DNA of 64,000 nucleotides from Actinomycetota bacterium (GTDB lineage: Bacteria; Actinomycetota; UBA4738; HRBIN12): assembly GCA_046731295.1 (NCBI GenBank), contig JBKPKU010000054.1, forward strand, positions 52,833 to 116,832, written 5' to 3'. Shown one piece after another: positions 4,817 to 16,887 of this stretch; the first letter of the stretch is position 1; each line of letters begins with the position of its first letter. The notes under the pieces were generated by a model, which ran no database searches, was not told the origin of the DNA, and worked only from the letters and a program-made list of their open reading frames with translations. The position numbers and the translations under genes were made by a program.

Positions 4817-7273
4817 TCAGGCCCTGATCCGGTCGCCCCTCGGGTCGTAGAGCGGCTCCCGCGCGACCTCGGCGCCGATCCACTCGCCGAAGACCTCGAC
4901 CTCGAGCCGCGTGCCGACCTCGGCGAGACCGGGGGGCATGTACGCGAAAGCGATGCTCCGGCCGACCGTGTAGCCGATCCCGCCCGAGGTCACGCGCGAG
5001 ACGACGTCCCCGCCCGACCGGACCGGCTCGTTGCCGAGCGTGGACGACCTTGGGTCGTCGAGTACCAGGCACGCGAGGGTGCGCCCCTCCTCCGCACGCC
5101 TGCGCTCCAGGGCCGCTCGTCCGATGAAGTCCTTGCCGGGCGCGACGGCGAACGCGAGGCCGGCCTCGACCGGGGAGTCGTCGGGCGTCACGTCCGAGCC
5201 CCATGCTCGATACCCCTTCTCGAGCCTGAGCGAGTCGATCGCCCGATACCCGCCCGGCACCAGCCCGCGAGGCTCCCCGGCCGCCATCAGCGTGTCGAAC
5301 AACGCCGCCCCGAACTCGATCGGCGCGTAGAGCTCCCACCCGAGCTCGCCCACGTACGTGATACGCACCGCCAGGCACGGGACGTCGCCGACCGTGACCT
5401 CACGTGCGGCCATGAAGGGGAAGGCCTCGTTCGACAGGTCGTCGGGACAGACCGACGAGAGGATGTCGCGCGCGCGAGGACCCCACAGGCCGAGGCACGC
5501 GAGAGATGACGTCACGTCGCGGATCTCGACCCGGTCGGCGTCGTCGCGCTGCTTCGTGATCCATCCGAGGTCGAGGCTGCCCGATGCCGTCCCGGTGATG
5601 ATCCGGTAGCGGTCGTCCGCCAACCGCGTGACCGTGAGGTCGCACTGGATGCCGCCGCGGCGGTTCAGCATCTGGGTGTAGACGACACGGCCGGCCGAGA
5701 CGTCGACGTCGTTCGCGCAGATCCGCTGCAGGAACGCGCACGACTCGGCGCCCGAGACCTCGATCTTGGCGAAGCTCGTCTCGTCGAACAGCCCGGCCCG
5801 CTCGCGCGTTGCCACGTGCTCGGCCGGGATCGCCGTCGACCAGTGCTGCCCGGCCCACCCCCGCGGGCGCATCTCGGCGAACCTCTCGTCCTCGTTGCTC
5901 GCGAACCAGTTCGCACGCTCCCACCCCGCCTTCTCGCCGAACGCGGCGCCGAGCGACGCGAGCCTCGTGTACGTCGGCGAGATCCTGAGGGGACGGCCGG
6001 CCTCGACCTCCTCGCCCGGGTACTTCACGTCGTAATGCTTGGCGTAGATCTCGTAGGCGCGCGCGAGCGCGAACCCCCGACTGCGGTACTGCCGGCCGAA
6101 CCGCCGGACGTCCATCTTCGACAGGTCCATCGACGGTTCGCCCTCGACGATCCACTCGGCCGTGTAGCGGCCGACACCCGCCCCGCCGGTGATGCCGTGC
6201 GCACAGAACCCGGCCGCGACGAACAGGCCGCGCACCTCGGTCTCGCCCAGGATGAAGTCGTCGTCGGGTGTGAAGGCCTCGGGGCCGTTGATGAACCGGT
6301 TGATCTCGGTCGTGCGCAGCGCCGGGATCAGGTTGAAGGCTCCCTGCGCGATCGGCTCGAAACGCTCCCACCTCTCCTCGAGCAGCCGGTGGTTGAAGTC
6401 CGGCGGGATCGGCGTGCGGACGTTCCAGGGGTCGGGGTTGCGCTCGTAGCCGCCCACGACGAGGCCGCCCACCTCCTCGCGCACGTAGACGAGGTTGTCC
6501 GGGTCGCGCAGCGTCGGGAAGGCCGACGTGACCCCCTCGATCGGCCGGGTGATCAGGTACTGGTGCTCCATCGGCACGACCGGGATCTCCAGCCCGGCAA
6601 GGCCGCCGAGCTCGTGCGCCCAGATCCCGCCCGCGATGACCACGACCTCGGCCTCGATCGGGCCCGCGTCCGTGACCACGCCCCGAACGCGTTCGTCGCG
6701 GACCGGGATCTGGACGACGCGGACCCCGGTCCGGATCCGCGTGCCGCCGCGCTTGGCCCCTTCCGCGAGCGCCATCGTGAGGCCGGTCGGGTCCAGGTGG
6801 CCGTCGGAGGGCACGAACTGCGCGCCCAGGACGTTCGAGGCCTCGATCAGCGGGAACCGCTCGTGCGCCTCGGCCGCCGAGACCATCTCGACAGGCAGCC
6901 CGAAGCTCTTGGCCCAGCCCGCCTGCCGCTCGAGCGCCTCGAGCCGGTACTCGGAGGAGGCGAGGTGCAGCGTTCCCACCTGGTGCCAGCCGGGATCGAT
7001 CCCGGTCTCGTCGTGCAGTCGCGGATACAGCTCGACCCCGTACATCATCATCCGGGTGTGGCTGACCGAGTTCCGCAGCTGCGCGACCAGGCCGGCCGAA
7101 TGGAACGTCGACCCGCTCGTGAGCTCGGAGCGGTCCAGGAGCAGCACGTCGTTCCAGCCCATCTTCGTCAGGTGGTAGGCGATGCTCGCGCCGGCGACGC
7201 CGCCGCCCACGATCACGGCGTGCGCGCGGTCCTCGCTCACGGGGCGATCGGCCGGGACGCCAGCTCGAGCCAT
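4817..7273 (-). CDS. Dimethylglycine oxidase / sarcosine dehydrogenase family protein (FAD-dependent oxidoreductase fused to a GcvT-type aminomethyltransferase folate-binding domain)
   Basis: N-terminal HAVIVGGGVAGASIAYHL dinucleotide-binding motif and DAO domain; C-terminal GcvT-like domain (ITYVGELGWELY, GGYRAIDSLRLEKGY). Start set at MARAGVP (818 aa); the upstream 119 codons of the ORF are Arg/Gly-rich and were rejected. Confidence 0.85.
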   Translation of the reverse strand: MARAGVPADRPVSEDRAHAVIVGGGVAGASIAYHLTKMGWNDVLLLDRSELTSGSTFHSAGLVAQLRNSVSHTRMMMYGVELYPRLHDETGIDPGWHQVGTLHLASSEYRLEALERQAGWAKSFGLPVEMVSAAEAHERFPLIEASNVLGAQFVPSDGHLDPTGLTMALAEGAKRGGTRIRTGVRVVQIPVRDERVRGVVTDAGPIEAEVVVIAGGIWAHELGGLAGLEIPVVPMEHQYLITRPIEGVTSAFPTLRDPDNLVYVREEVGGLVVGGYERNPDPWNVRTPIPPDFNHRLLEERWERFEPIAQGAFNLIPALRTTEINRFINGPEAFTPDDDFILGETEVRGLFVAAGFCAHGITGGAGVGRYTAEWIVEGEPSMDLSKMDVRRFGRQYRSRGFALARAYEIYAKHYDVKYPGEEVEAGRPLRISPTYTRLASLGAAFGEKAGWERANWFASNEDERFAEMRPRGWAGQHWSTAIPAEHVATRERAGLFDETSFAKIEVSGAESCAFLQRICANDVDVSAGRVVYTQMLNRRGGIQCDLTVTRLADDRYRIITGTASGSLDLGWITKQRDDADRVEIRDVTSSLACLGLWGPRARDILSSVCPDDLSNEAFPFMAAREVTVGDVPCLAVRITYVGELGWELYAPIEFGAALFDTLMAAGEPRGLVPGGYRAIDSLRLEKGYRAWGSDVTPDDSPVEAGLAFAVAPGKDFIGRAALERRRAEEGRTLACLVLDDPRSSTLGNEPVRSGGDVVSRVTSGGIGYTVGRSIAFAYMPPGLAEVGTRLEVEVFGEWIGAEVAREPLYDPRGDRIRA

Positions 7274-8157
7274 CCCTCGAAACGTTCGTCCGCCATCGAC
7301 CGCAACAGGCGGTCGAAGTGCCGCCCCGCATAGGCGACATAGTCGATGTCCAGCGTCGACAGCGCCTGCTGCACCACGCCCCACATCGCCTCGCGGAAGT
7401 CCGACATGATCCGCATCAGGTGTAGGCGGGCGCGGTGCGCGTCGGTCACCTCGTCGAACATCAGCCCGAGCAGCGCCTCCTGCGAGTCCTCGGACAGCGC
7501 GTTGTTGATCGACAGGTTGCCCAGGTCGAAGAACGGGTCGCCCATGCCCGCGTACTCGTAGTCGACCAACCAGAACCCGTCGTCGCCGCGCAGGAAGTTG
7601 TCGGCCAGCAGGTCGTTGTGGCACGGGCACTCGGGCACGGGCGCCTGGGCAAACGCCTCCTCGATGCGTCCCGCGCGCTCGTGCGCGGGCTCGAACGCGT
7701 CCGGGATCGCGACGCCCCGCTCATGCGCGATCCGCCGGTAGTCCTCGACGATCCTGAAGGCCTCGAACGAGCACGGCAAACGCGGTCCGGCGTGGATCGT
7801 GCGGACCACGCGCGCCACGTCCGCGAGCACATTCTCCTGCTCCATGTCGCCCTCGGCCAGGGGCTCCCCCGGGACCCAGCCGGTGATCAGGCAGCGGTGC
7901 TGGGGCAGGTGGGCCACGACCTCGGGGCCGACGCCGGCCGCTGCCGCGTCGAGTGCGGCCTCGTACTCCGCGGCGCGGTCGATGCCCAGCAGCGCGGTGT
8001 CCTCGTCGGACAGGCGCAGGAAGAAGGCCGCGCCGCCCACCTCGACGCGGAAGTTCCGGTTCGTCCGTCCCGCGTCGATCGGCGTCACGGTCGGCTCGTG
8101 CGTCCGCCATTCGGGAACGGCGGCGATCACCGCCGCCAGTTGGGGGTCCTGGAGCAC
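7237..8157 (-). CDS. Choline/ethanolamine kinase - aminoglycoside phosphotransferase (APH) family protein
   Basis: Kinase-fold motifs: Brenner HNDLLADNFL and the DYEYAGMGDPFFDLGN Mg-binding loop, typical of ChoK/APH. Overlaps the DMGO start by 37 nt. Confidence 0.75.
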   Translation of the reverse strand: MLQDPQLAAVIAAVPEWRTHEPTVTPIDAGRTNRNFRVEVGGAAFFLRLSDEDTALLGIDRAAEYEAALDAAAAGVGPEVVAHLPQHRCLITGWVPGEPLAEGDMEQENVLADVARVVRTIHAGPRLPCSFEAFRIVEDYRRIAHERGVAIPDAFEPAHERAGRIEEAFAQAPVPECPCHNDLLADNFLRGDDGFWLVDYEYAGMGDPFFDLGNLSINNALSEDSQEALLGLMFDEVTDAHRARLHLMRIMSDFREAMWGVVQQALSTLDIDYVAYAGRHFDRLLRSMADERFEGWLELASRPIAP

Positions 8158-8263
8158 GCGGCGACGCTAGAGGGGGTGACCGCGCTGGGTCAAGGCGAGG
8201 CCGCCCCGAACGACCCAGCCGGGTGTGGGGCGGCCGGCCGTGCCGGGTCACCCGTCTGGTGGG

Positions 8264-8291
8264 TTGACAGGCACAGAGCGGTCCGTACACT
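8264..8291 (+). promoter_or_regulatory. Sigma-70-like promoter: TTGACA, 16-nt spacer, TACACT
   Basis: Hexamers read directly from the sequence in the divergent intergenic region. The predicted TSS lies 2-3 nt before the leader ATG, so the leader mRNA would be leaderless. Confidence 0.4.
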
Positions 8292-8300
8292 GGCCCAACC

Positions 8301-8354
8301 ATGCAGACGATGTTGGAGAAGACCGGGCCGCAGGCACTCGTACTTATTCCGTAG
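8301..8354 (+). CDS. Putative ilv operon leader peptide MQTMLEKTGPQALVLIP (17 aa)
   Basis: Short ORF immediately after the promoter that ends in consecutive branched-chain codons (Leu-Val-Leu-Ile). It is followed by a nested hairpin (8355-8390) and a terminator hairpin with a T-tract. Confidence 0.45.
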   Translation: MQTMLEKTGPQALVLIP

Positions 8355-8394
8355 GCGCGGCCGGGCCGAGACAGGCCCGGGTCCCGCGCCAGAC

Positions 8395-8422
8395 GCCCCT
8401 CGCGCAGCGAGGGGCTTTTTGT
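8395..8422 (+). terminator. Rho-independent attenuator terminator (gcccctcgc-gca-gcgaggggc followed by TTTTT)
   Basis: 9-bp GC stem, 3-nt loop and T5 run. It sits between the leader ORF and the first structural gene, the classic attenuator arrangement. Confidence 0.5.
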
Positions 8423-8484
8423 ACGCCTCGCGGGGCGATCGGCGAGGCCGGCGATCAGGTCGACGACACGGAGAGGAGATCCAG

Positions 8485-8823
8485 ATGCGCTACGAGTTCG
8501 AGCGGGACGGACGGATGGTGGCCAGCGTGCTGTGGGAGGGTCCCGGCCAGGTCACGGTCGACGTGGCCGACCCGGCCGACCGGCCGCAGTTCGACCGGTT
8601 CTTCGGCGAGGAGGTCGCCTACCTGGACGCCGGGGTCGACTTCGGCGGCGGCATGGACGAGGGCGGCATGACCACGCGCCGCCGCGACTGGACGCCGTGG
8701 GAGTTCGAGCGGGCGGCGCAGAGCCTGGCCCACACGCTGGGGTGCCGCCTGCACCGGGTCGAGACCGGGCCGGTCGAGGAGCGCGCCGCGGTCGCCGGCC
8801 GCGCGGAGGTCGCCGCTACATGA
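8485..8823 (+). CDS. Hypothetical acidic protein (112 aa), first cistron of the ilv operon
   Basis: Strong RBS GAGAGGAGAT 6 nt upstream of the ATG. Its stop overlaps the ilvB start (ATGA). No recognisable domain ([50 protein letters not shown]...). Confidence 0.6.
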
Positions 8824-10568
8824 GGGTCACCGGCGCGCAGGCGCTGTTCCGGGCCCTCGAGGGCGAGGGCGTCGATCTCGCGTTCGGCATCCCTGGCGGG
8901 GCGATCCTGCCCGCCTACGACCCGCTGATCGACTCGAGGGTCCGCCACGTCCTGTGCCGCCACGAGCAGGGCGCGGGCCACGCGGCCGAGGGCTACGCGT
9001 GGGCCACGGGCAAGGTGGGCGTCGCCATCGCGACGTCGGGCCCCGGGGGCTGCAACCTGGTCACGGCGCTCGCGGACGCCAAGATGGACTCGGTGCCGAT
9101 GGTCGCGATCACCGGCCAGGTCCCGACCCCGGTGGTCGGCAACGACGCGTTCCAGGAGGCGGACATCACCGGCATCACGATGCCGATCACCAAGCACAAC
9201 TTCCTGGTCAAGGACGCGAACGAGGTCGCCGAGACGATCCGGGAGGCGTTCCACATCGCGCGGACCGGCCGGCCCGGCCCAGTCCTGGTCGACATCCCCA
9301 AGGACGTGCAGCTGCAGGAGATCACCTGGCGTTGGCCCGAGGGTGTCGACCTGCCCGGCTACCGCCCGACCACCAAGGGAAACCTGAAACAGGTCCGCAC
9401 GGCCGCGACGATGATCATGGAGTCCGAGCGCCCCGTCTTGTACGTGGGCGGGGGCGTCATCAAGGCGGACGCGAGCAAGGAGCTGTTCCAGCTCGCCACC
9501 GACGGTGCGTTGCCGGTCACGACGACGCTCATGGCGCGCGGCGCGTTCCCCGACACGCACGAGCTCGCGCTCGGGATGCCGGGGATGCACGGGGCCTACA
9601 CGGCGGTCACCGCGATGCAGAGGGCCGACCTGCTGGTCGCGCTCGGCGCGCGGTTCGACGACCGGGTGACCGGACAGCTGTCCTCGTTCGCGCCGGACGC
9701 CAGGATCGTGCACGTCGACGTCGACCCGGCCGAGATCGGCAAGAACCGCGCCGCCGATGTCCCGATCGTGGGCGACTGCAAGGACGTGATCGCCAAGCTC
9801 CACACCGAGCTCGGGCGCCTGCAGGGCGAGGCGGGGGGCGTCCCCGACCGGACCGCATGGCTGCGCCAGATCGACGAGTGGCGGACCGCGCACCCGTACG
9901 CCTACGACCAGCCCGCGGACGGTCCCCTCAAGCCCCAGTACTGCATCGAGCGGCTGTACGAACACACCAAGGGCGACGCGATCGTGGTGGCCGGCGTCGG
10001 GCAACACCAGATGTGGGCGTCGCAGTTCTGGAAGTTCACCGAGCCCCGGACGTGGGTGAACTCGGGCGGGCTCGGGACGATGGGGTTCGCGGTGCCGGCG
10101 GCGCTCGGCGCCAAGGCCGGCAACCCGGACCGGCGCGTGATCGCGATCGACGGCGACGGGTGTTTCCAGATGACGAACCAGGAGCTCGCGACCTCGACGG
10201 CCGAGGGCATCCCATTCGTCACCGCCATCATCAACAACGCGCACCTCGGGATGGTCCGGCAGTGGCAGGAGCTCTTCTACGAGGAGCGCTACTCGCAGGT
10301 CTACCTGTCCTACGACGTCCCGGACTACGTGAAGCTCGCCGAGGCGTACGGGTGTGTGGGCCTTCGGGCCGAGCACCCCGACGAGGTGGACGCCGTGATC
10401 GACAAGGCACTGTCGATCGAGGATCGAAGCGTCGTCATCGACTTCCGGGTGGATTCGAAGGAGATGTGCTTCCCGATGGTCCCGGCCGGGGCGAGCAACG
10501 ACGACATCATCGCCGGCCCCGAGGGCCTTCGGCCCGTGGACGACCCGGCGGAAGCTCCGGTCGCATGA
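8820..10568 (+). CDS. ilvB: Acetolactate synthase (acetohydroxyacid synthase) large subunit
   Basis: ThDP-enzyme motifs ([41 protein letters not shown]). Start chosen at [10 protein letters not shown]; the upstream 96 Arg/Gly codons were rejected. Confidence 0.9.
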
Positions 10569-11119
10569 GCCTGCACACGATCTCGGTGCTGGTCGAGGAC
10601 AAGCCCGGCGTGCTCACGCGCGTGGCCGGGCTGTTCGCCGCCCGCGGCTTCAACATCGACTCGCTCGCGGTCGGACCCACCAACGGCGAGGGCCAGTCGC
10701 GCATGACGATCGTCGTGCACGTGGACACCAAGCCCCTCGAACAGATCACCAAGCAGCTCAACAAGCTGGTGAACGTCATCAAGATCCTCGAGCACGAGCC
10801 CGGCGACGCCGTCGAACGCGAGCTGATGCTCGTGAAGGTGCGCGCGAGCGGCGACGACCGGCATCGCGCGATGGAGATCGCCAACGTGTTCCGGGCCACG
10901 GTGGTGGACGTCACCCGTTCCACGCTCACGCTCGAGGCCACCGGCAAGCCGGAGAAGCTCGAGGCCCTCCTGCAGCTGCTCGGCGACTTCGGCGTGATCG
11001 AGCTCTCGCGCACCGGGCGCATCGCGCTCGCGCGCGGGGACCGAGGGATCAGGGAGAAGGGGTCCAAGCGCAGGGCGCTCGCGGCCGTGGCCGACGAGTA
11101 CACCGGCGGCAGCGTCTGA
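10565..11119 (+). CDS. ilvN: Acetolactate synthase small (regulatory) subunit, ACT domain
   Basis: [37 protein letters not shown] signature; ATGA overlap with ilvB. Confidence 0.9.
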
Positions 11120-11150: not shown

Positions 11151-12170
11151 ATGGCCACGATCTACCACGACCAGGACGCGGACCCCTCGGCGCTTGCGGG
11201 GCAACGGATCGCGGTGCTGGGGTTCGGAAGCCAGGGGCACGCGCACGCCCAGAACCTGCGAGACTCCGGGCACGACGTGCGGGTGGGCCTGCGCGAGGGT
11301 TCGGCGTCGTGGTCCCGGGTCGAGGAGGCGGGCCTGCCGGTGAAGGCGACGGCCGAGGCCGTCGCCGAGGCCGACGCCGTGATGGTCGTCCTGCCCGACA
11401 CCGCACACGGGGCCGTCTACGCCAGGGACATCGGGCCGAACCTTTCCGCGGGCAACATGCTGATGTTCGCGCACGGCTTCTCGATCCACTTCGGCACGGT
11501 CAAGCCGCCCGCCGACGTCGACGTCACGATGATCGCCCCCAAGGGCCCCGGTCACCTCGTGAGGCGCACGTACGAGGAGGGGATCGGCACCCCGGCGCTG
11601 ATCGCCGTCCAGCAAGACGCGACCGGCACGGCGCTGCAACGTGCGCTCGCCTACGGCGCCGGGATCGGAGCCGCCCGCGCCGGCATCATCGAGACGACGT
11701 TCAAGGAGGAGACCGAGACCGACCTGTTCGGCGAGCAGTCCGTGCTGTGCGGCGGGATCTCGACGCTGGTGGAGGCGGGGTTCGAGACGCTGGTGCGCGC
11801 CGGTTACCAGCCGGAGATCGCCTACTTCGAGTGTCTGCACGAGCTCAAGCTCATCATCGACCTCATCTATGAGGGCGGCCTGTCGTGGATGCGCTACTCG
11901 ATCTCGGACACCGCCGAATGGGGCGACTACATGAGCGGTCCCCGCGTCGTGGACGAGGGCGTTCGCGAACGCATGCGCCAGGTCCTGGCCGAGATCCAGG
12001 ACGGCACGTTCGCGGAGGAGTGGCTGGGGGAGGCCGAGGCCGGCTTCCCCCACTTCCTCGCGATGCGCCGCGAGGCCCGCGGCTCCGAGCTGGAGCGCGT
12101 GGGCCGCGAGCTGCGTCCGATGATGCCGTGGTTGCATTCCGACGAGAAGGTGATCCCCGATGACCACTAG
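11151..12170 (+). CDS. ilvC: Ketol-acid reductoisomerase (class I, ~340 aa)
   Basis: [24 protein letters not shown]-binding motif, conserved IlvC body, 339 aa. Confidence 0.9.
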
Positions 12171-13710
12171 CAACGACCCCGACGTAGTACGGATCTTCGA
12201 CACCACCCTCCGCGACGGCGAGCAGGCCCCCGGGATCGCGCTCACCCGGGCCGAGAAGGTCGAGATCGCGGAGCAGCTGGCCCGCCTCGGCGTCGACGTG
12301 CTCGAGGCGGGCTTTCCGGTCTCCAGCGACGGCGAGTTCGAGGCCGTGCGCGAGATCGCCGCGAGCGTTCGCGGCCCGGTGATCGCGGCGCTCGCTCGCG
12401 TCGTACCCGGCGACATCACGCGCGCCGCCGAGGCGCTCGACGGCGCCGAGCGCTGGCGGATCCACACGTTCATCTCCACCAGCGACATCCACATGACGGA
12501 CATGCTGCGGATGAGCCAGGGCCAGGTCCTGGACGCGATCCGCGACGGCGTCAAGCTCGCCGTCGGGTACACCGACGACGTCGAGTTCAGTGCGCAGGAC
12601 GCCACCCGGACCGAGCTCGAGTTCCTGCTCGAGTGCTTCCGGGTCGCCGTGGAGGCGGGCGCCATCACGATCAACGTGCCCGACACCGTCGGCTATGCGA
12701 TGCCGCACGAGTTCGGCGAGCTCGTCCGGACCGTCCGCGAGGCGGTGCCCGACCACGTCGTGATCTCGACGCACTGCCACAACGACCTCGGCCTCGCGGT
12801 CGCGAACTCGCTGGCCGCCATCGTGAACGGCGCGCGCCAGGTCGAGGTGGCCGTGAACGGGATCGGGGAGCGGGCCGGCAACTGCTCGCTCGAGGAGGTC
12901 GCGATGATCGTGCGGACGCGCAGCGAGGCACTCGGCGTCCGGCACGGCCTGAACCTGAAGGAGATCACGCGCACCTCGCGCCTGGTCAGCATGACCACGG
13001 GGTACGGCGTGCAGCCCAACAAGGCCGTGGTGGGCGCGTCCGCGTTCGCGCACGAGAGCGGGATCCACCAGCACGGCGTGCTCTCCAACCGGGCGACCTA
13101 CGAGATCATGGACCCGCTCGAGATCGGCCTGGAGGGCAACCGCCTCGTCCTGGGCAAGCACTCGGGCCGCCACGCGTTCGCCGACGCCCTGGACAAGCTC
13201 GGGATCGAGCTCGACGAGGATCACCTGAACCGCGCATTCGCACGCTTCAAGGAGCTCGCCGACCGCAAGATCCAGCTCACCGATCAGGACCTCGCGGCGA
13301 TCGTGTCCGAGGAGCTCGGCGCGGCGGCCGAGGACGTGTTCGTCCTGGAGGCCTTGCAGGTCGGTGGCGGGACGCTGCTCTCCCCGACGGCCAGCGTTCG
13401 GCTCCGCAAGGGCGACGAGATCGTCGAGGAGTCGGCGATGGGCGACGGGATGATCGACGCGGCGATGGGCGCGATCCAGCGCGCCTCGGGCGTCGAGGGG
13501 CGACTCGTCTCGTTCAACGTCTCCGCCGTGACCGGCGGGACCGACGCGCTGGGCGACGTCGTGGTTCAGCTGGACGCGCTCGGGCGGCGCGTGACCGGGC
13601 GTGGCGTGGCCACCGACGTCGTCGAGGCCAGCGCGCGCGCCTACCTCGCGGCCGTCAACCGGGCGCTCCTGATGTCGAACGGGCACGCCGAGGAGGACGG
13701 CACGCCGTGA
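12160..13710 (+). CDS. leuA: 2-isopropylmalate synthase (long bacterial form with C-terminal LeuA-dimer regulatory domain)
   Basis: [12 protein letters not shown] ... [17 protein letters not shown] ... [11 protein letters not shown] motifs. 516 aa; 11-nt overlap with ilvC. Confidence 0.9.
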
Positions 13711-14750
13711 CGCACGCGGTCGGTGTGATCCGGGGCGACGGCACGGGTCCCGAGGTCATCGGGCAGGCCCTGCGCGTCCTGGACGCCGTGGCCGTTCCGG
13801 TCGAGCTCGTCGAGTTCGACCTCGGCGCCGAACGCTATCTGCGTACCAGCGAGGTGCTGCCCGACGACGAGCTGGCTCGGCTCCGCGAGATGGACGCGAT
13901 CCTGCTCGGCGCCGTGGGCGACCCCAGGGTCCGGCCCGGCGTGCTCGAACGCGATCTGCTGCTCCGGATCCGGTTCGATCTGGACCAGTACGTGAACCTG
14001 CGGCCGATCGTGCGCTACCCGGGCGTCGAGACCCTGATCCCCAGCCAGACCGAGGACGACGTGAACATGGTGGTTGTGCGGGAGAACTCCGAGGGTCTGT
14101 ACGTCGGCGCGGGAGGCTTCCACCGCAAGGGGACCGAGCACGAGGTGGCCGTCCAGGAGTCGATCAACACGCGGCACGGGGTCGAGCGCATCGTGCGATA
14201 CGCGTTCGAGCTGGCGAGGCGGCCGGAGCGGCGTCGCAAGCTGACGCTGGTCCACAAGACCAACGTGCTCACGTTCGCCGGCGATCTGTACCGGCGGGTC
14301 GTGGAGGAGGTGGGCGTCGCGTATCCCGATGTCGAGCACGACTACGTCCACGTGGACGCCGCGTGCATCTACTTCCTGGATCAGCCGTCGCGGTTCGATG
14401 TGATCGTGACCGACAACATGTTCGGCGACATCATCACGGACCTCGGCGCGATGATCCAGGGCGGGATGGGCATCGCGGCCGGCGGCAACATCAACCCGGC
14501 CGGCACGAGCATGTTCGAGCCGATCGGGGGCACGGCGCCCGACCACGCAGGCAGGGGCACGATCAACCCGCTGGCCGCGATCGGCGCGCTCCAGATGCTC
14601 CTGGCCCAGCTCGGCGAGGCCGACGCGGCCGACCGCGTGACCGCGGGCATCCGCGTCGCGTGCTCGAAGATGTCCTCCATGCGCGCCGGCGAGATGGGGT
14701 ACTCGACGCGGGAGGTCGGCGATCTCGTGCTCGAGGGGGCCACCGCATGA
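13707..14750 (+). CDS. leuB: 3-isopropylmalate dehydrogenase
   Basis: GTG start in a GTGA overlap with leuA; [10 protein letters not shown] ... [19 protein letters not shown] motifs of the isocitrate/isopropylmalate dehydrogenase family. Confidence 0.85.
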
Positions 14751-16360
14751 GCGTGGGCGCGGGCCTGCAGGTCGAGCTGTACGACACCACGCTGCGCGAC
14801 GGCGCGCAGGGCGCCGGCGTCTCGTACTCGATCGACGACCGCCTGCGGATCCTGCACAAGCTCGACCAGCTCGGGGTGCCGTTCGTCGAGGGCGGTTGGC
14901 CGGGTGCGAACCCGCGGGAGACCGAGTTCTTCCGGCTGGCGACCGGCGAGACGCTCAAGCACGCGACGCTCACGGCGTTCGGGATGACGCGCAAGGCGGG
15001 GGAGTCGGCGGGCTCGAGCGCCGTGCTCCGCGACCTGCTGGACGCCGGGACGCGGGTCGTGACCCTGGTGGGCAAGGCCTGGGACCTGCACGTCATCGAC
15101 GCGCTTCGGACGACCCTGGACGAGGGCGAGGCCATGGTGCGCGACTCGATCGGCTTCCTGCGCGAGCAGGGCCGGCGGGTCTTCTTCGACGCCGAGCACT
15201 TCTTCGACGGGTACCGCAGCGACCCCGCGTTCGCCCTGCGGATCCTCCGGACCGCCGAGGAGGCGGGCGCCGAGCGGCTGGTCCTGTGCGACACGAACGG
15301 CGGGATGCTGCCCCAGGAGGTGGCGCGCATCGTCGGCGAGGTGCGCCAGAGCGTCCGGCCGCCGCTCGGGATCCACGTCCACAACGATGCCGGCTGCGCG
15401 ATCGCCAACTCACTGATCGCCGTCGAGCACGGTGTTTATCAGGTGCAGGGCGTCGTGAACGGCTATGGGGAGCGGACCGGCAACGCGGACCTGATCCCGA
15501 TCGCCGCCAACCTCGTGCTGAAGATGGGCGCCGAGTGCCTGCCCGACGGGTCGCTCGAGCGGCTCACCGAGGTCGCCCACTACGTGGCCGAGGTCGCCAA
15601 CGTGGCGCCGGACGCGCGGCAGCCGTACGCGGGCCGGTACGCGTTCACGCACAAGGCCGGCCTGCACGCGAGCGGCGTCGAACGCGTCTCGCGCGCGTAC
15701 GAGCACGTCGAGCCCACCACGGTCGGCAACCGGCGCGGGGTGGTGGCCAGCGATCTCGGCGGCGGCGCCACGATCCGGATGAAGGGTCGGGAGTTCGGCG
15801 TCGAGCTCGACGGCGACGCGGTCACGCGCCTGCTGAGCGAGCTCAAGGAGCGCGAGGCCCGCGGCTACACGTTCGAGATCGCCGACGCCTCGCTCGAGCT
15901 GCTCATGCGGCGTGCCGACGGCTGGCGGCAGCCGTTCTTCCAGATCGACAGCTACCGCGTCCACGTCGAGGAGCGCGTCGGCGACGACGAGCCGCCCCTC
16001 GCCGAAGCCACGGTGAAGGTCGTGACGAAGGGCCGCCGGCACATCGAGAGCGCCGAGGGGCACGGCCCCGTGGGGGCCCTCGACAACGCGCTGCGCAAGG
16101 CGCTGGCCAACGACTACCCGGAGCTCGAGCACATCACGCTCGAAGACTTCCGGGTGCGCGTGCTGGACGAGACCCATGGCACAGGTGCGGTAGTCCGCGT
16201 CCTGATCGACACATCGAACGGTCGGCGCGAGTGGACCACCGTCGGCGTGTCCGAGAACATCATCGAGGCCTCCTGGGAGGCGCTCGTCGACGGCTACCTG
16301 TTCGGCCTGATCCACCCGCGCGAGAGCGAGGAGCCGCGAAGCGAGCCCGCGGTACGCTGA
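14747..16360 (+). CDS. cimA: (R)-citramalate synthase-like LeuA-family enzyme with C-terminal regulatory domain
   Basis: Second LeuA-family gene ([45 protein letters not shown]), 537 aa, with the cimA-type architecture. Its ATGA overlaps leuB. A paralogous leuA cannot be excluded. Confidence 0.75.
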
Positions 16361-16365
16361 CCCGG

Positions 16366-16887
16366 ATGCCGCTGCGGATCCGAGAGGCCGTGCCGGCGGA
16401 CGCCCGCGCCATCGCCGAGATCCACGTTCGGTCGTGGCAGGCGGCGTACCGGGGACAGCTCACCGACGACTACCTGGACGGCCTCTCCGTCGAAGACCGA
16501 CTCGAGCAGCACCGTCGGAGCCTCGAGGAGCCGCCGGCCGAGTGGCGGACCTGGGTGGCGCAGGACGGCGAGCAGGTGGCCGGGTTCGCGGTCACCGGAC
16601 CGAGCCAGGACGCCGACGCGACCGAGCGCACCGGAGAGGTGTACGCGATCTACCTGGAGCCGGATCGCGTCGGGACCGGCTCGGGGCGTGCGCTGTTCGA
16701 GCGCGCGGTCGGCGACCTGCGCGAGCGCGGATTCGACGCCGCCACCCTGTGGGTGCTCGAGACCAACGAGCGCGCGCGCCGCTTCTACGAGGTCGCCGGT
16801 TGGGCCGAGGACGGCACCGTCACCAGCGAGCGGGTCGACTGTGAGATGCGTCCGACCGTGCGCTACCGGATCGACCTGACACCCTAG
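16366..16887 (+). CDS. GNAT family N-acetyltransferase
   Basis: 174 aa with a GNAT fold signature (VAGFAVTGP ... RVGTGSGRALFERAV). Its stop overlaps the convergent GGDEF/EAL gene end by 4 nt. Confidence 0.75.
   Translation: MPLRIREAVPADARAIAEIHVRSWQAAYRGQLTDDYLDGLSVEDRLEQHRRSLEEPPAEWRTWVAQDGEQVAGFAVTGPSQDADATERTGEVYAIYLEPDRVGTGSGRALFERAVGDLRERGFDAATLWVLETNERARRFYEVAGWAEDGTVTSERVDCEMRPTVRYRIDLTP

Follow-up and report, generated by a model that had tools for sequence, protein, structure and literature searches.

Leader attenuators upstream of ilvB form a known family in actinobacteria. Seliverstov et al. (2005, PMC1262725) reported 'candidate leader peptides with terminators' upstream of ilvB in Corynebacterium, Mycobacterium, and Streptomyces, and called the mode of regulation unclear because substitutions of leader codons in S. 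coelicolor left regulation unchanged (Craster 1999, as cited in PMC1262725). For the ilvB1 uORF of M. tuberculosis, Eckartt et al. (Nat Microbiol 2026, PMC13236596) described a terminated transcript of ~120 nt and ribosome occupancy of the uORF, showing that an IlvB1 inhibitor induces the system and that changing LVVI to AAAA abolishes this induction. In the model they put forward, an 'anti-terminator' forms only if the ribosome stalls at GUA, and is masked when the ribosome is at the stop codon (PMC13236596). Translation of the M. tuberculosis uORF was also found in a preprint by D'Halluin et al. In Streptomyces lividans, RNA-seq showed that ilvL is transcribed leaderless (Droste et al. 2021, PMC8079986). 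The Corynebacterium ilvBNC leader, known as the ilvB-II motif, is associated with higher expression in minimal vs. rich medium, and its proposed antiterminator pairs the loop of the first hairpin (hereafter, P1) with the lower terminator stem (Narunsky et al. 2023, PMC10272879). Premature termination that is relieved by Ile, Leu, or Val shortage in a manner dependent on the regulatory codons has been described for both M. tuberculosis (PMC13236596) and Corynebacterium (PMC10272879).

Here, we analyzed a leader in a 64-kb stretch of DNA (hereafter, the window) from an uncultured Actinomycetota lineage, and found it to be a member of this family. The leader is followed on the same strand by a 112-aa ORF (orfX), ilvB, ilvN, ilvC, leuA, and leuB. 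With a probability of roughly 0.8, the leader is an ilvB leader-peptide transcription attenuator of the ilvL type that works as proposed below. The biosynthetic genes all passed curated cut-offs: ilvB (8820–10568, + strand; acetolactate synthase large subunit), ilvN (10565–11119, +; acetolactate synthase small subunit), ilvC (11151–12170, +; ketol-acid reductoisomerase), leuA (12160–13710, +; 2-isopropylmalate synthase), and leuB (13707–14750, +; 3-isopropylmalate dehydrogenase). The first gene of the operon, orfX (8485–8823, +), starts 64 nt after the end of the terminator, has the ribosome-binding site GGAGAGGAGA, and encodes a conserved protein of unassigned function. Its TGA stop overlaps the ilvB start codon (ATGA), through which orfX is probably translationally coupled to ilvB. 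A total of 520 homologues of orfX were found, with no informative name among the matches listed and a few organism names, which were those of uncultured Actinomycetota; the motifs RRDW.PWEFER and TGPVE are invariant. The protein matched no Pfam or NCBIfam family, and its AF2 model (pLDDT 67.8, medium confidence) had no PDB fold match. The gene is missing from locus L004, and there is no room for it in Streptomyces, Pseudonocardiales, and Mycobacterium because the distance from terminator to ilvB is short.

The leuA gene within this ilv operon is of the short bacterial type (516 aa, TIGR00973). Actinobacterial leuA genes in the literature are stand-alone and located behind their own 'LEU element' leader. 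Beyond leuB, the + strand encodes a second LeuA/CimA-like (HMGL-like) protein (~14750–16360), which has a LeuA_dimer domain and may be a citramalate synthase, and after it a GNAT acetyltransferase (~16400–16887). Given that both genes are on the same strand, the operon may extend beyond leuB. On the − strand, a long ORF at 4817–7630, judged by translation alone, resembles a fusion of an FAD-dependent oxidase with a glycine-cleavage-T-like domain.

Every feature that the first-pass annotation had assigned to the leader was recovered to within 1 nt. The annotation had described a TTGACA-16nt-TACACT promoter with an ATG within ~10 nt, a 17-codon ORF ending in branched-chain codons, and a near-leaderless transcript, and these three claims stand. 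The −35 hexamer TTGACA (8264–8269, +) and the −10 hexamer TACACT (8286–8291, +) are separated by 16 nt and match 10 of 12 consensus positions, and this is the sole promoter-like site in the region 7000–10000 (0.1 expected from shuffles). The ATG of the leader ORF, at position 8301, follows 9 nt past the −10 hexamer. The ORF (8301–8354, +) comprises 17 codons, translated as MQTMLEKTGPQALVLIP, and the TAG stop codon (8352–8354). The peptide ends in Leu-Val-Leu-Ile-Pro, and the regulatory codons are CTC GTA CTT ATT (Leu Val Leu Ile; 8337–8348, +). Promoter and start codon keep this arrangement in 10 of the 11 members of the window clade, with TTGAC(A/G) retained, a spacer of 16–17 nt, and TAnnnT or GAnnnT exactly 9 nt before the ATG. 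Because of this constant distance to the −10 hexamer, transcription is expected to start at ~8297–8301, which would leave a 5' UTR of 0–4 nt, in agreement with the leaderless transcription of the homologous Streptomyces ilvL (PMC8079986). The distance from ATG to CTC is 33, 36, or 39 nt in 10 clade members and is always a multiple of 3; in clade member L009, the promoter lies further upstream and the distance is 66 nt (counted by eye). The N-terminal part of the leader ORF drifts in sequence and length among relatives, with the frame always kept. Together, the fixed 9-nt spacing and the in-frame ATG-to-CTC distances provide evidence that the leader ORF is probably decoded.

The ORF is followed by two hairpins. 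P1 (8354–8390, +), the counterpart of the stall-dependent 'anti-terminator' in the M. tuberculosis model, is a two-tier, GC-rich structure with a basal helix (8354–8360/8384–8390), an apical helix (8361–8367/8374–8380), and a loop (8368–8373), with pair probabilities of at least 0.986. The first-pass annotation had placed this nested GC hairpin at 8355–8390; the hairpin and its end were correct, and its start is shifted to 8354, so that its first base is the G of the TAG stop codon. After the spacer AGAC (8391–8394, +) comes the intrinsic terminator (hereafter, T; 8395–8420, +), GCCCCTCGC-GCA-GCGAGGGGC plus T5, with a 9-bp stem (8395–8403/8407–8415), the T5 run at 8416–8420, and a hairpin energy of −18.2 kcal/mol. 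When both strands of the 64 kb were scanned (perfect stem of at least 6 bp, loop of 3–8, at least 5 T in 8), T was the single match in the whole window, consistent with the annotation's description of the only clean intrinsic terminator in 64 kb. The leader RNA folds more stably than shuffled sequences (z = −3.4). A search of the whole window with all 4227 Rfam models, leader and riboswitch families included, gave no match at the gathering threshold.

To compare this leader with those of other genomes, ilvB loci were collected by an IlvB protein scan with one genome per species, which returned 80 loci. Ten of these belong to uncultured Actinomycetota (IlvB 69–85% identical to that of the window), and the others come from Acidimicrobiia, Pseudonocardiales, Streptomyces, Nocardia, Kribbella, and others (61–66% identity). 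The comparative alignment that the first-pass annotation had suggested showed the leader ORF and hairpins conserved upstream of ilvB in about 70 of the 80 genomes, with the same layout. Upstream of ilvB, most of the loci combine CTCGTACTT with a GCGCG-based P1 and a terminator; in 72 loci, CTCGTA (≤1 mismatch) is in frame within a short ORF, followed by a GCGCG/CGCGC-based hairpin and then by a terminator with a T-run. A covariance model, R1, was built from the window clade and has a single strong match in the window (8331–8420, 99.3 bits). About 68 other loci also have an R1 match immediately before ilvB, and for the leaders of Acidimicrobiia, Pseudonocardiales, Streptomyces, Kribbella, and others the E-values range between 3e-12 and about 0.3. 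Among 73 aligned R1 matches, 94.8% of the cells are paired, compared to 75.1% in shuffles and at most 60% with slid partners. Compensatory changes were found at 21 of 22 pairs (13/13 in P1 and 8/9 in T) in these 73 matches, the alignment of which is fitted to the model, and an independent MAFFT alignment of the window clade has double changes at 7 of 22 pairs. The gap between P1 and T is 0–5 nt in all 67 leaders whose minimum-energy fold contains P1, being mostly 3–5 nt in the window clade and 0–2 nt in most other lineages.

These comparisons indicate that the leader is homologous in sequence, structure, and position to the actinobacterial ilvB leaders. It is an orthologue of the known ilvL/ilvB1 uORF attenuator and not a new kind of element. 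The ribosome-mediated attenuator that the annotation had proposed upstream of the ilv/leu operon is thus supported by homology to ~70 ilvB leaders, two studied ones among them. Immediately after the T-run, (G/C)T(A/T)(C/G)CC(C) is present in all clade members (8421–8430 in the window, and L001–L010), and GTTGC in other lineages. Pairing of the (G/C)TAC(C)CC after the T-run with CGTAC of the leader was considered and rejected, as the leader motif is invariant and the downstream motif varies without compensation; no other partner for the downstream motif came to light.

The features shared by the family were also found in the window: the same-strand ilvB-ilvN-ilvC operon is directly downstream, a short ORF surrounds the in-frame CTC-GTA, P1 begins about one ribosome half-footprint past GTA, T and its T-run follow within 0–5 nt, and homology is detectable. 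In M. tuberculosis, where the locus was found via the IlvB1 protein, the uORF MDKAGKPGMLVVIGRRVGA contains CTC GTA GTA ATT and is followed by P1 and T; R1 detects this leader weakly (14.2 bits, with filters off only). Both leaders precede ilvB-ilvN-ilvC, both have an in-frame CTC GTA (LVVI in M. tuberculosis, LVLI in the window), and in both a P1 with a CGCG base starts ~10 nt past GTA, with an adjacent terminator and T-run. However, the M. tuberculosis uORF enters the P1 5' arm and ends in the loop, whereas the window ORF stops at the P1 foot, and the P1–T spacer is 0–1 nt there vs. 4 nt in the window, which in addition has a fourth rare codon (ATT) and the extra gene orfX before ilvB. The Streptomyces leader peptide, MRTRILVLGKRVG, is identical to the published IlvL. 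Its gene resembles the window leader in having a short ORF without a Shine-Dalgarno sequence right after the promoter, the codons ATT CTC GTA CTT, a GCGCG-based P1, and a terminator followed by a T6 run. It differs in that its P1, at 55–70 nt and with an inner hairpin, is larger and contains the end of the ORF. Corynebacterium ilvB-II, compared by its published description, shares the Ile/Leu/Val-rich uORF followed by a terminator upstream of ilvB, whereas its uORF spans most of P1. The enterobacterial attenuators (trp, his, leu, ilvGMEDA, and ilvBN) are more distant: there, as proposed here, ribosome speed over codons for the pathway product controls an intrinsic terminator, but their many regulatory codons in runs, Shine-Dalgarno sequence, and strand-sharing antiterminator are all absent from the window leader. 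The window leader is peculiar in four ways: its stop codon is at the P1 foot and not within P1, it has a fourth rare codon, its spacer is longer, and ilvB is preceded by an additional conserved gene.

The position of P1 relative to the regulatory codons is similar across the family. Using a ribosome footprint of 26 nt, as in the M. tuberculosis paper (PMC13236596), a ribosome centred on GTA (8340–8342) covers 8328–8353, leaving the RNA exposed exactly from the first base of P1 onward, whereas with the ribosome centred on the stop codon the entire 5' arm of the P1 basal helix is covered. P1 begins 13–14 nt after the C of CTC in 47 of 67 leaders (full range 8–17 nt); nine of the 67, mostly from the window clade, have P1 starting at 17 nt. 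In 72 leaders, the position of the stop codon relative to the first P1 base ranges from −2 to +25 nt, which means that a terminating ribosome would always cover the P1 base. From these two sets of positions, the rule that a stall leaves P1 intact and completion melts its base would apply family-wide.

In a classical attenuator of the trp/his type, one strand of the terminator is also used by an antiterminator helix, and the two structures exclude each other by base pairing. The overall layout of the window leader looks textbook, with a leader peptide containing regulatory codons and then an intrinsic terminator, and the M. tuberculosis paper calls its two hairpins 'mutually exclusive' (PMC13236596). 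However, P1 and T share no nucleotides, given that the last base of P1 is 8390 and the first of T is 8395, and they are non-overlapping neighbours in all ~70 leaders compared, including that of M. tuberculosis, which itself folds P1 and T side by side. In the window, the minimum-energy fold contains T whether the ribosome is absent or placed at GTA, ATT, or the stop codon, and the pair probabilities of T do not fall below 0.98 in any of these states. A fold in which the T 5' arm is forbidden to pair is 17 kcal/mol less stable and has no helix to replace T. In ribosome-footprint folding, T was likewise kept in all relatives tested and in M. tuberculosis.

Direct searches for a competing strand gave the same answer. 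When all upstream sequence was compared to each terminator arm with RNAduplex in 72 leaders, pairing was no better than in shuffles (mean z of +0.4 for the T 5' arm and +0.6 for the T 3' arm), and extension of P1 into the T 5' arm under constrained folding was no better than with shuffled flanks (mean z of +0.5). The P1-loop/terminator pairing proposed for ilvB-II has no detectable equivalent in the window, where RNAduplex found no significant upstream pairing to either terminator arm relative to shuffles. An overlapping antiterminator was therefore rejected, with the duplex, footprint-folding, and P1-extension tests all at chance level, and a helix sharing nucleotides with the terminator was not found by any of them. 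The first-pass annotation had remarked that the antiterminator pairing was not obvious and that the leader may work by a variant mechanism. Both remarks agree with our results, since folding and duplex tests found no competitor of the terminator in the window or its relatives, and the non-overlapping P1 and T are a property of the whole family. By contrast, the mutually exclusive terminator/antiterminator folds that it had proposed to look for did not appear, as T persists in all ribosome states. We consider a classical trp/his-type attenuator very unlikely here.

Pairing of the regulatory-codon region with later segments ('P0') was rejected as an antiterminator, since it never touches T and is without a conserved counterpart in the window clade. 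It appears in the leaders L020, L033, L054, L059, and L060 and in M. tuberculosis (L081, 1336–1455), where the ribosome-free minimum-energy fold pairs the CUCGUA region with the P1 interior, excluding P1.

The regulatory codons are conserved at the nucleotide level. CTCGTACTTAT and TAGGCGCG are invariant in the window and its ten close relatives (L001–L010), with other parts of the ORF and the hairpin tops being variable. Among the 72 leaders, which were selected for a CTCGTA-like motif, CTC is in frame in 67 and GTA in 71, and the codon after GTA is CTT in 44; leaders without the exact CTCGTA motif also use GTA (by inspection). These codons are rare in the organism. In the operon genes, GTA accounts for 3 of 204 Val codons (1.5%), CTT for 4 of 172 Leu codons (2.3%), and ATT for none of 104 Ile codons, and their shares in the 36 high-GC3 ORFs of the window are 2.7%, 3.5%, and 0.3%, respectively. 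A preference for rare codons in leader peptides has a precedent in the E. coli leu leader, which uses rare CUA codons. Selection for rare codons read by specific tRNAs would account for the invariance at synonymous positions without an RNA motif. As a side claim, the near-invariant CUC-GUA would make tRNA-Val(UAC) the primary sensor.

The same invariance could also mean that CUCGUA(CUU) is not decoded and is instead an RNA motif, recognized together with P1 by a protein, a tRNA, or a small ligand. In addition to the invariant synonymous positions, conservation of the GCGCG base of P1 extends to leaders that leave it untranslated, which fits such a motif. Several observations oppose this reading: a start codon 9 nt past the −10 hexamer always puts the motif in frame, with all length changes being multiples of 3, and the invariant codons are exactly the rare ones. 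Unlike an aptamer, P1 has a loop whose sequence varies greatly and a span that ranges from 24 to 70 nt across leaders, and an Rfam search at E up to 10 over 8200–8500 returned just three spurious eukaryotic or viral matches. Furthermore, the M. tuberculosis uORF is translated, and changing its codons abolishes induction (PMC13236596). An undecoded RNA motif is, on balance, highly improbable. We also give little credence to the idea that T is the constitutive terminator of a separate small transcript (a small RNA or micropeptide gene) with the ilv operon on its own downstream promoter, because, even though the short terminated RNA is abundant in M. tuberculosis (PMC13236596) and a trans function is conceivable, the scan of 7000–10000 placed no promoter-like site between T and orfX, T is not the terminator of the upstream neighbour (a kinase-like gene encoded on the opposite strand), the leader stays with ilvB in the sampled genomes though flanking genes differ, and peptide conservation in the compared leaders is restricted to Ile/Leu/Val codons.

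We propose that the leader works as a ribosome-mediated attenuator in the following manner. Transcription would begin a few bases before the ATG at 8301, and the leader ORF would be translated without a Shine-Dalgarno sequence. Given that CTT, ATT, and GTA are very rare, the speed of decoding would be set by charged tRNA-Val(UAC), tRNA-Leu(GAG), and tRNA-Ile. When Val, Leu, and Ile are plentiful, the ribosome would reach the TAG codon (8352–8354) and cover or unwind the P1 basal helix (5' arm 8354–8360) as the polymerase makes the terminator; with the base of P1 masked, T would fold and the transcript would end at ~8420. When these amino acids are scarce, the ribosome would wait at GTA, or at CTT/ATT, with its downstream edge at the P1 foot, P1 would fold fully, and the polymerase would read through T into orfX-ilvBNC-leuAB. 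By analogy, starvation read-through as in M. tuberculosis probably also happens in the window organism.

For the antitermination step, folding and duplex tests found no base-pairing basis in the window, and we hypothesize that folded P1 suppresses T sterically or through RNA polymerase. Our best guess, suggested by their adjacency, is that a rigid P1, lying 0–5 nt from T and flanked at its 5' foot by a ribosome, may keep the lowest T pairs from forming in the RNA exit channel. A purely steric explanation is made less likely by the P1–T spacer of the window clade, which at mostly 3–5 nt exceeds that of other lineages. More tentatively, this could extend to the whole actinobacterial ilvB leader family, in which the antiterminator would not compete for terminator bases and P1 with a stalled ribosome would act sterically or in a put-like manner on the polymerase; we regard this generalization as possible but doubtful.

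In terms of annotation, these results place a regulatory element and a leader ORF (ilvL) in an uncultured Actinomycetota lineage, with orfX, leuA, and leuB under the same predicted control as ilvBNC. For specialists, the main point is that the 'antiterminator' and the terminator of this family do not overlap. The finding that P1 and T are neighbours and not competitors in ~70 leaders reveals a gap in the accepted model, and may explain why earlier work found the mode of regulation unclear. If the proposal is true, the non-competing P1 antiterminator would represent a distinct class of ribosome-mediated attenuation.
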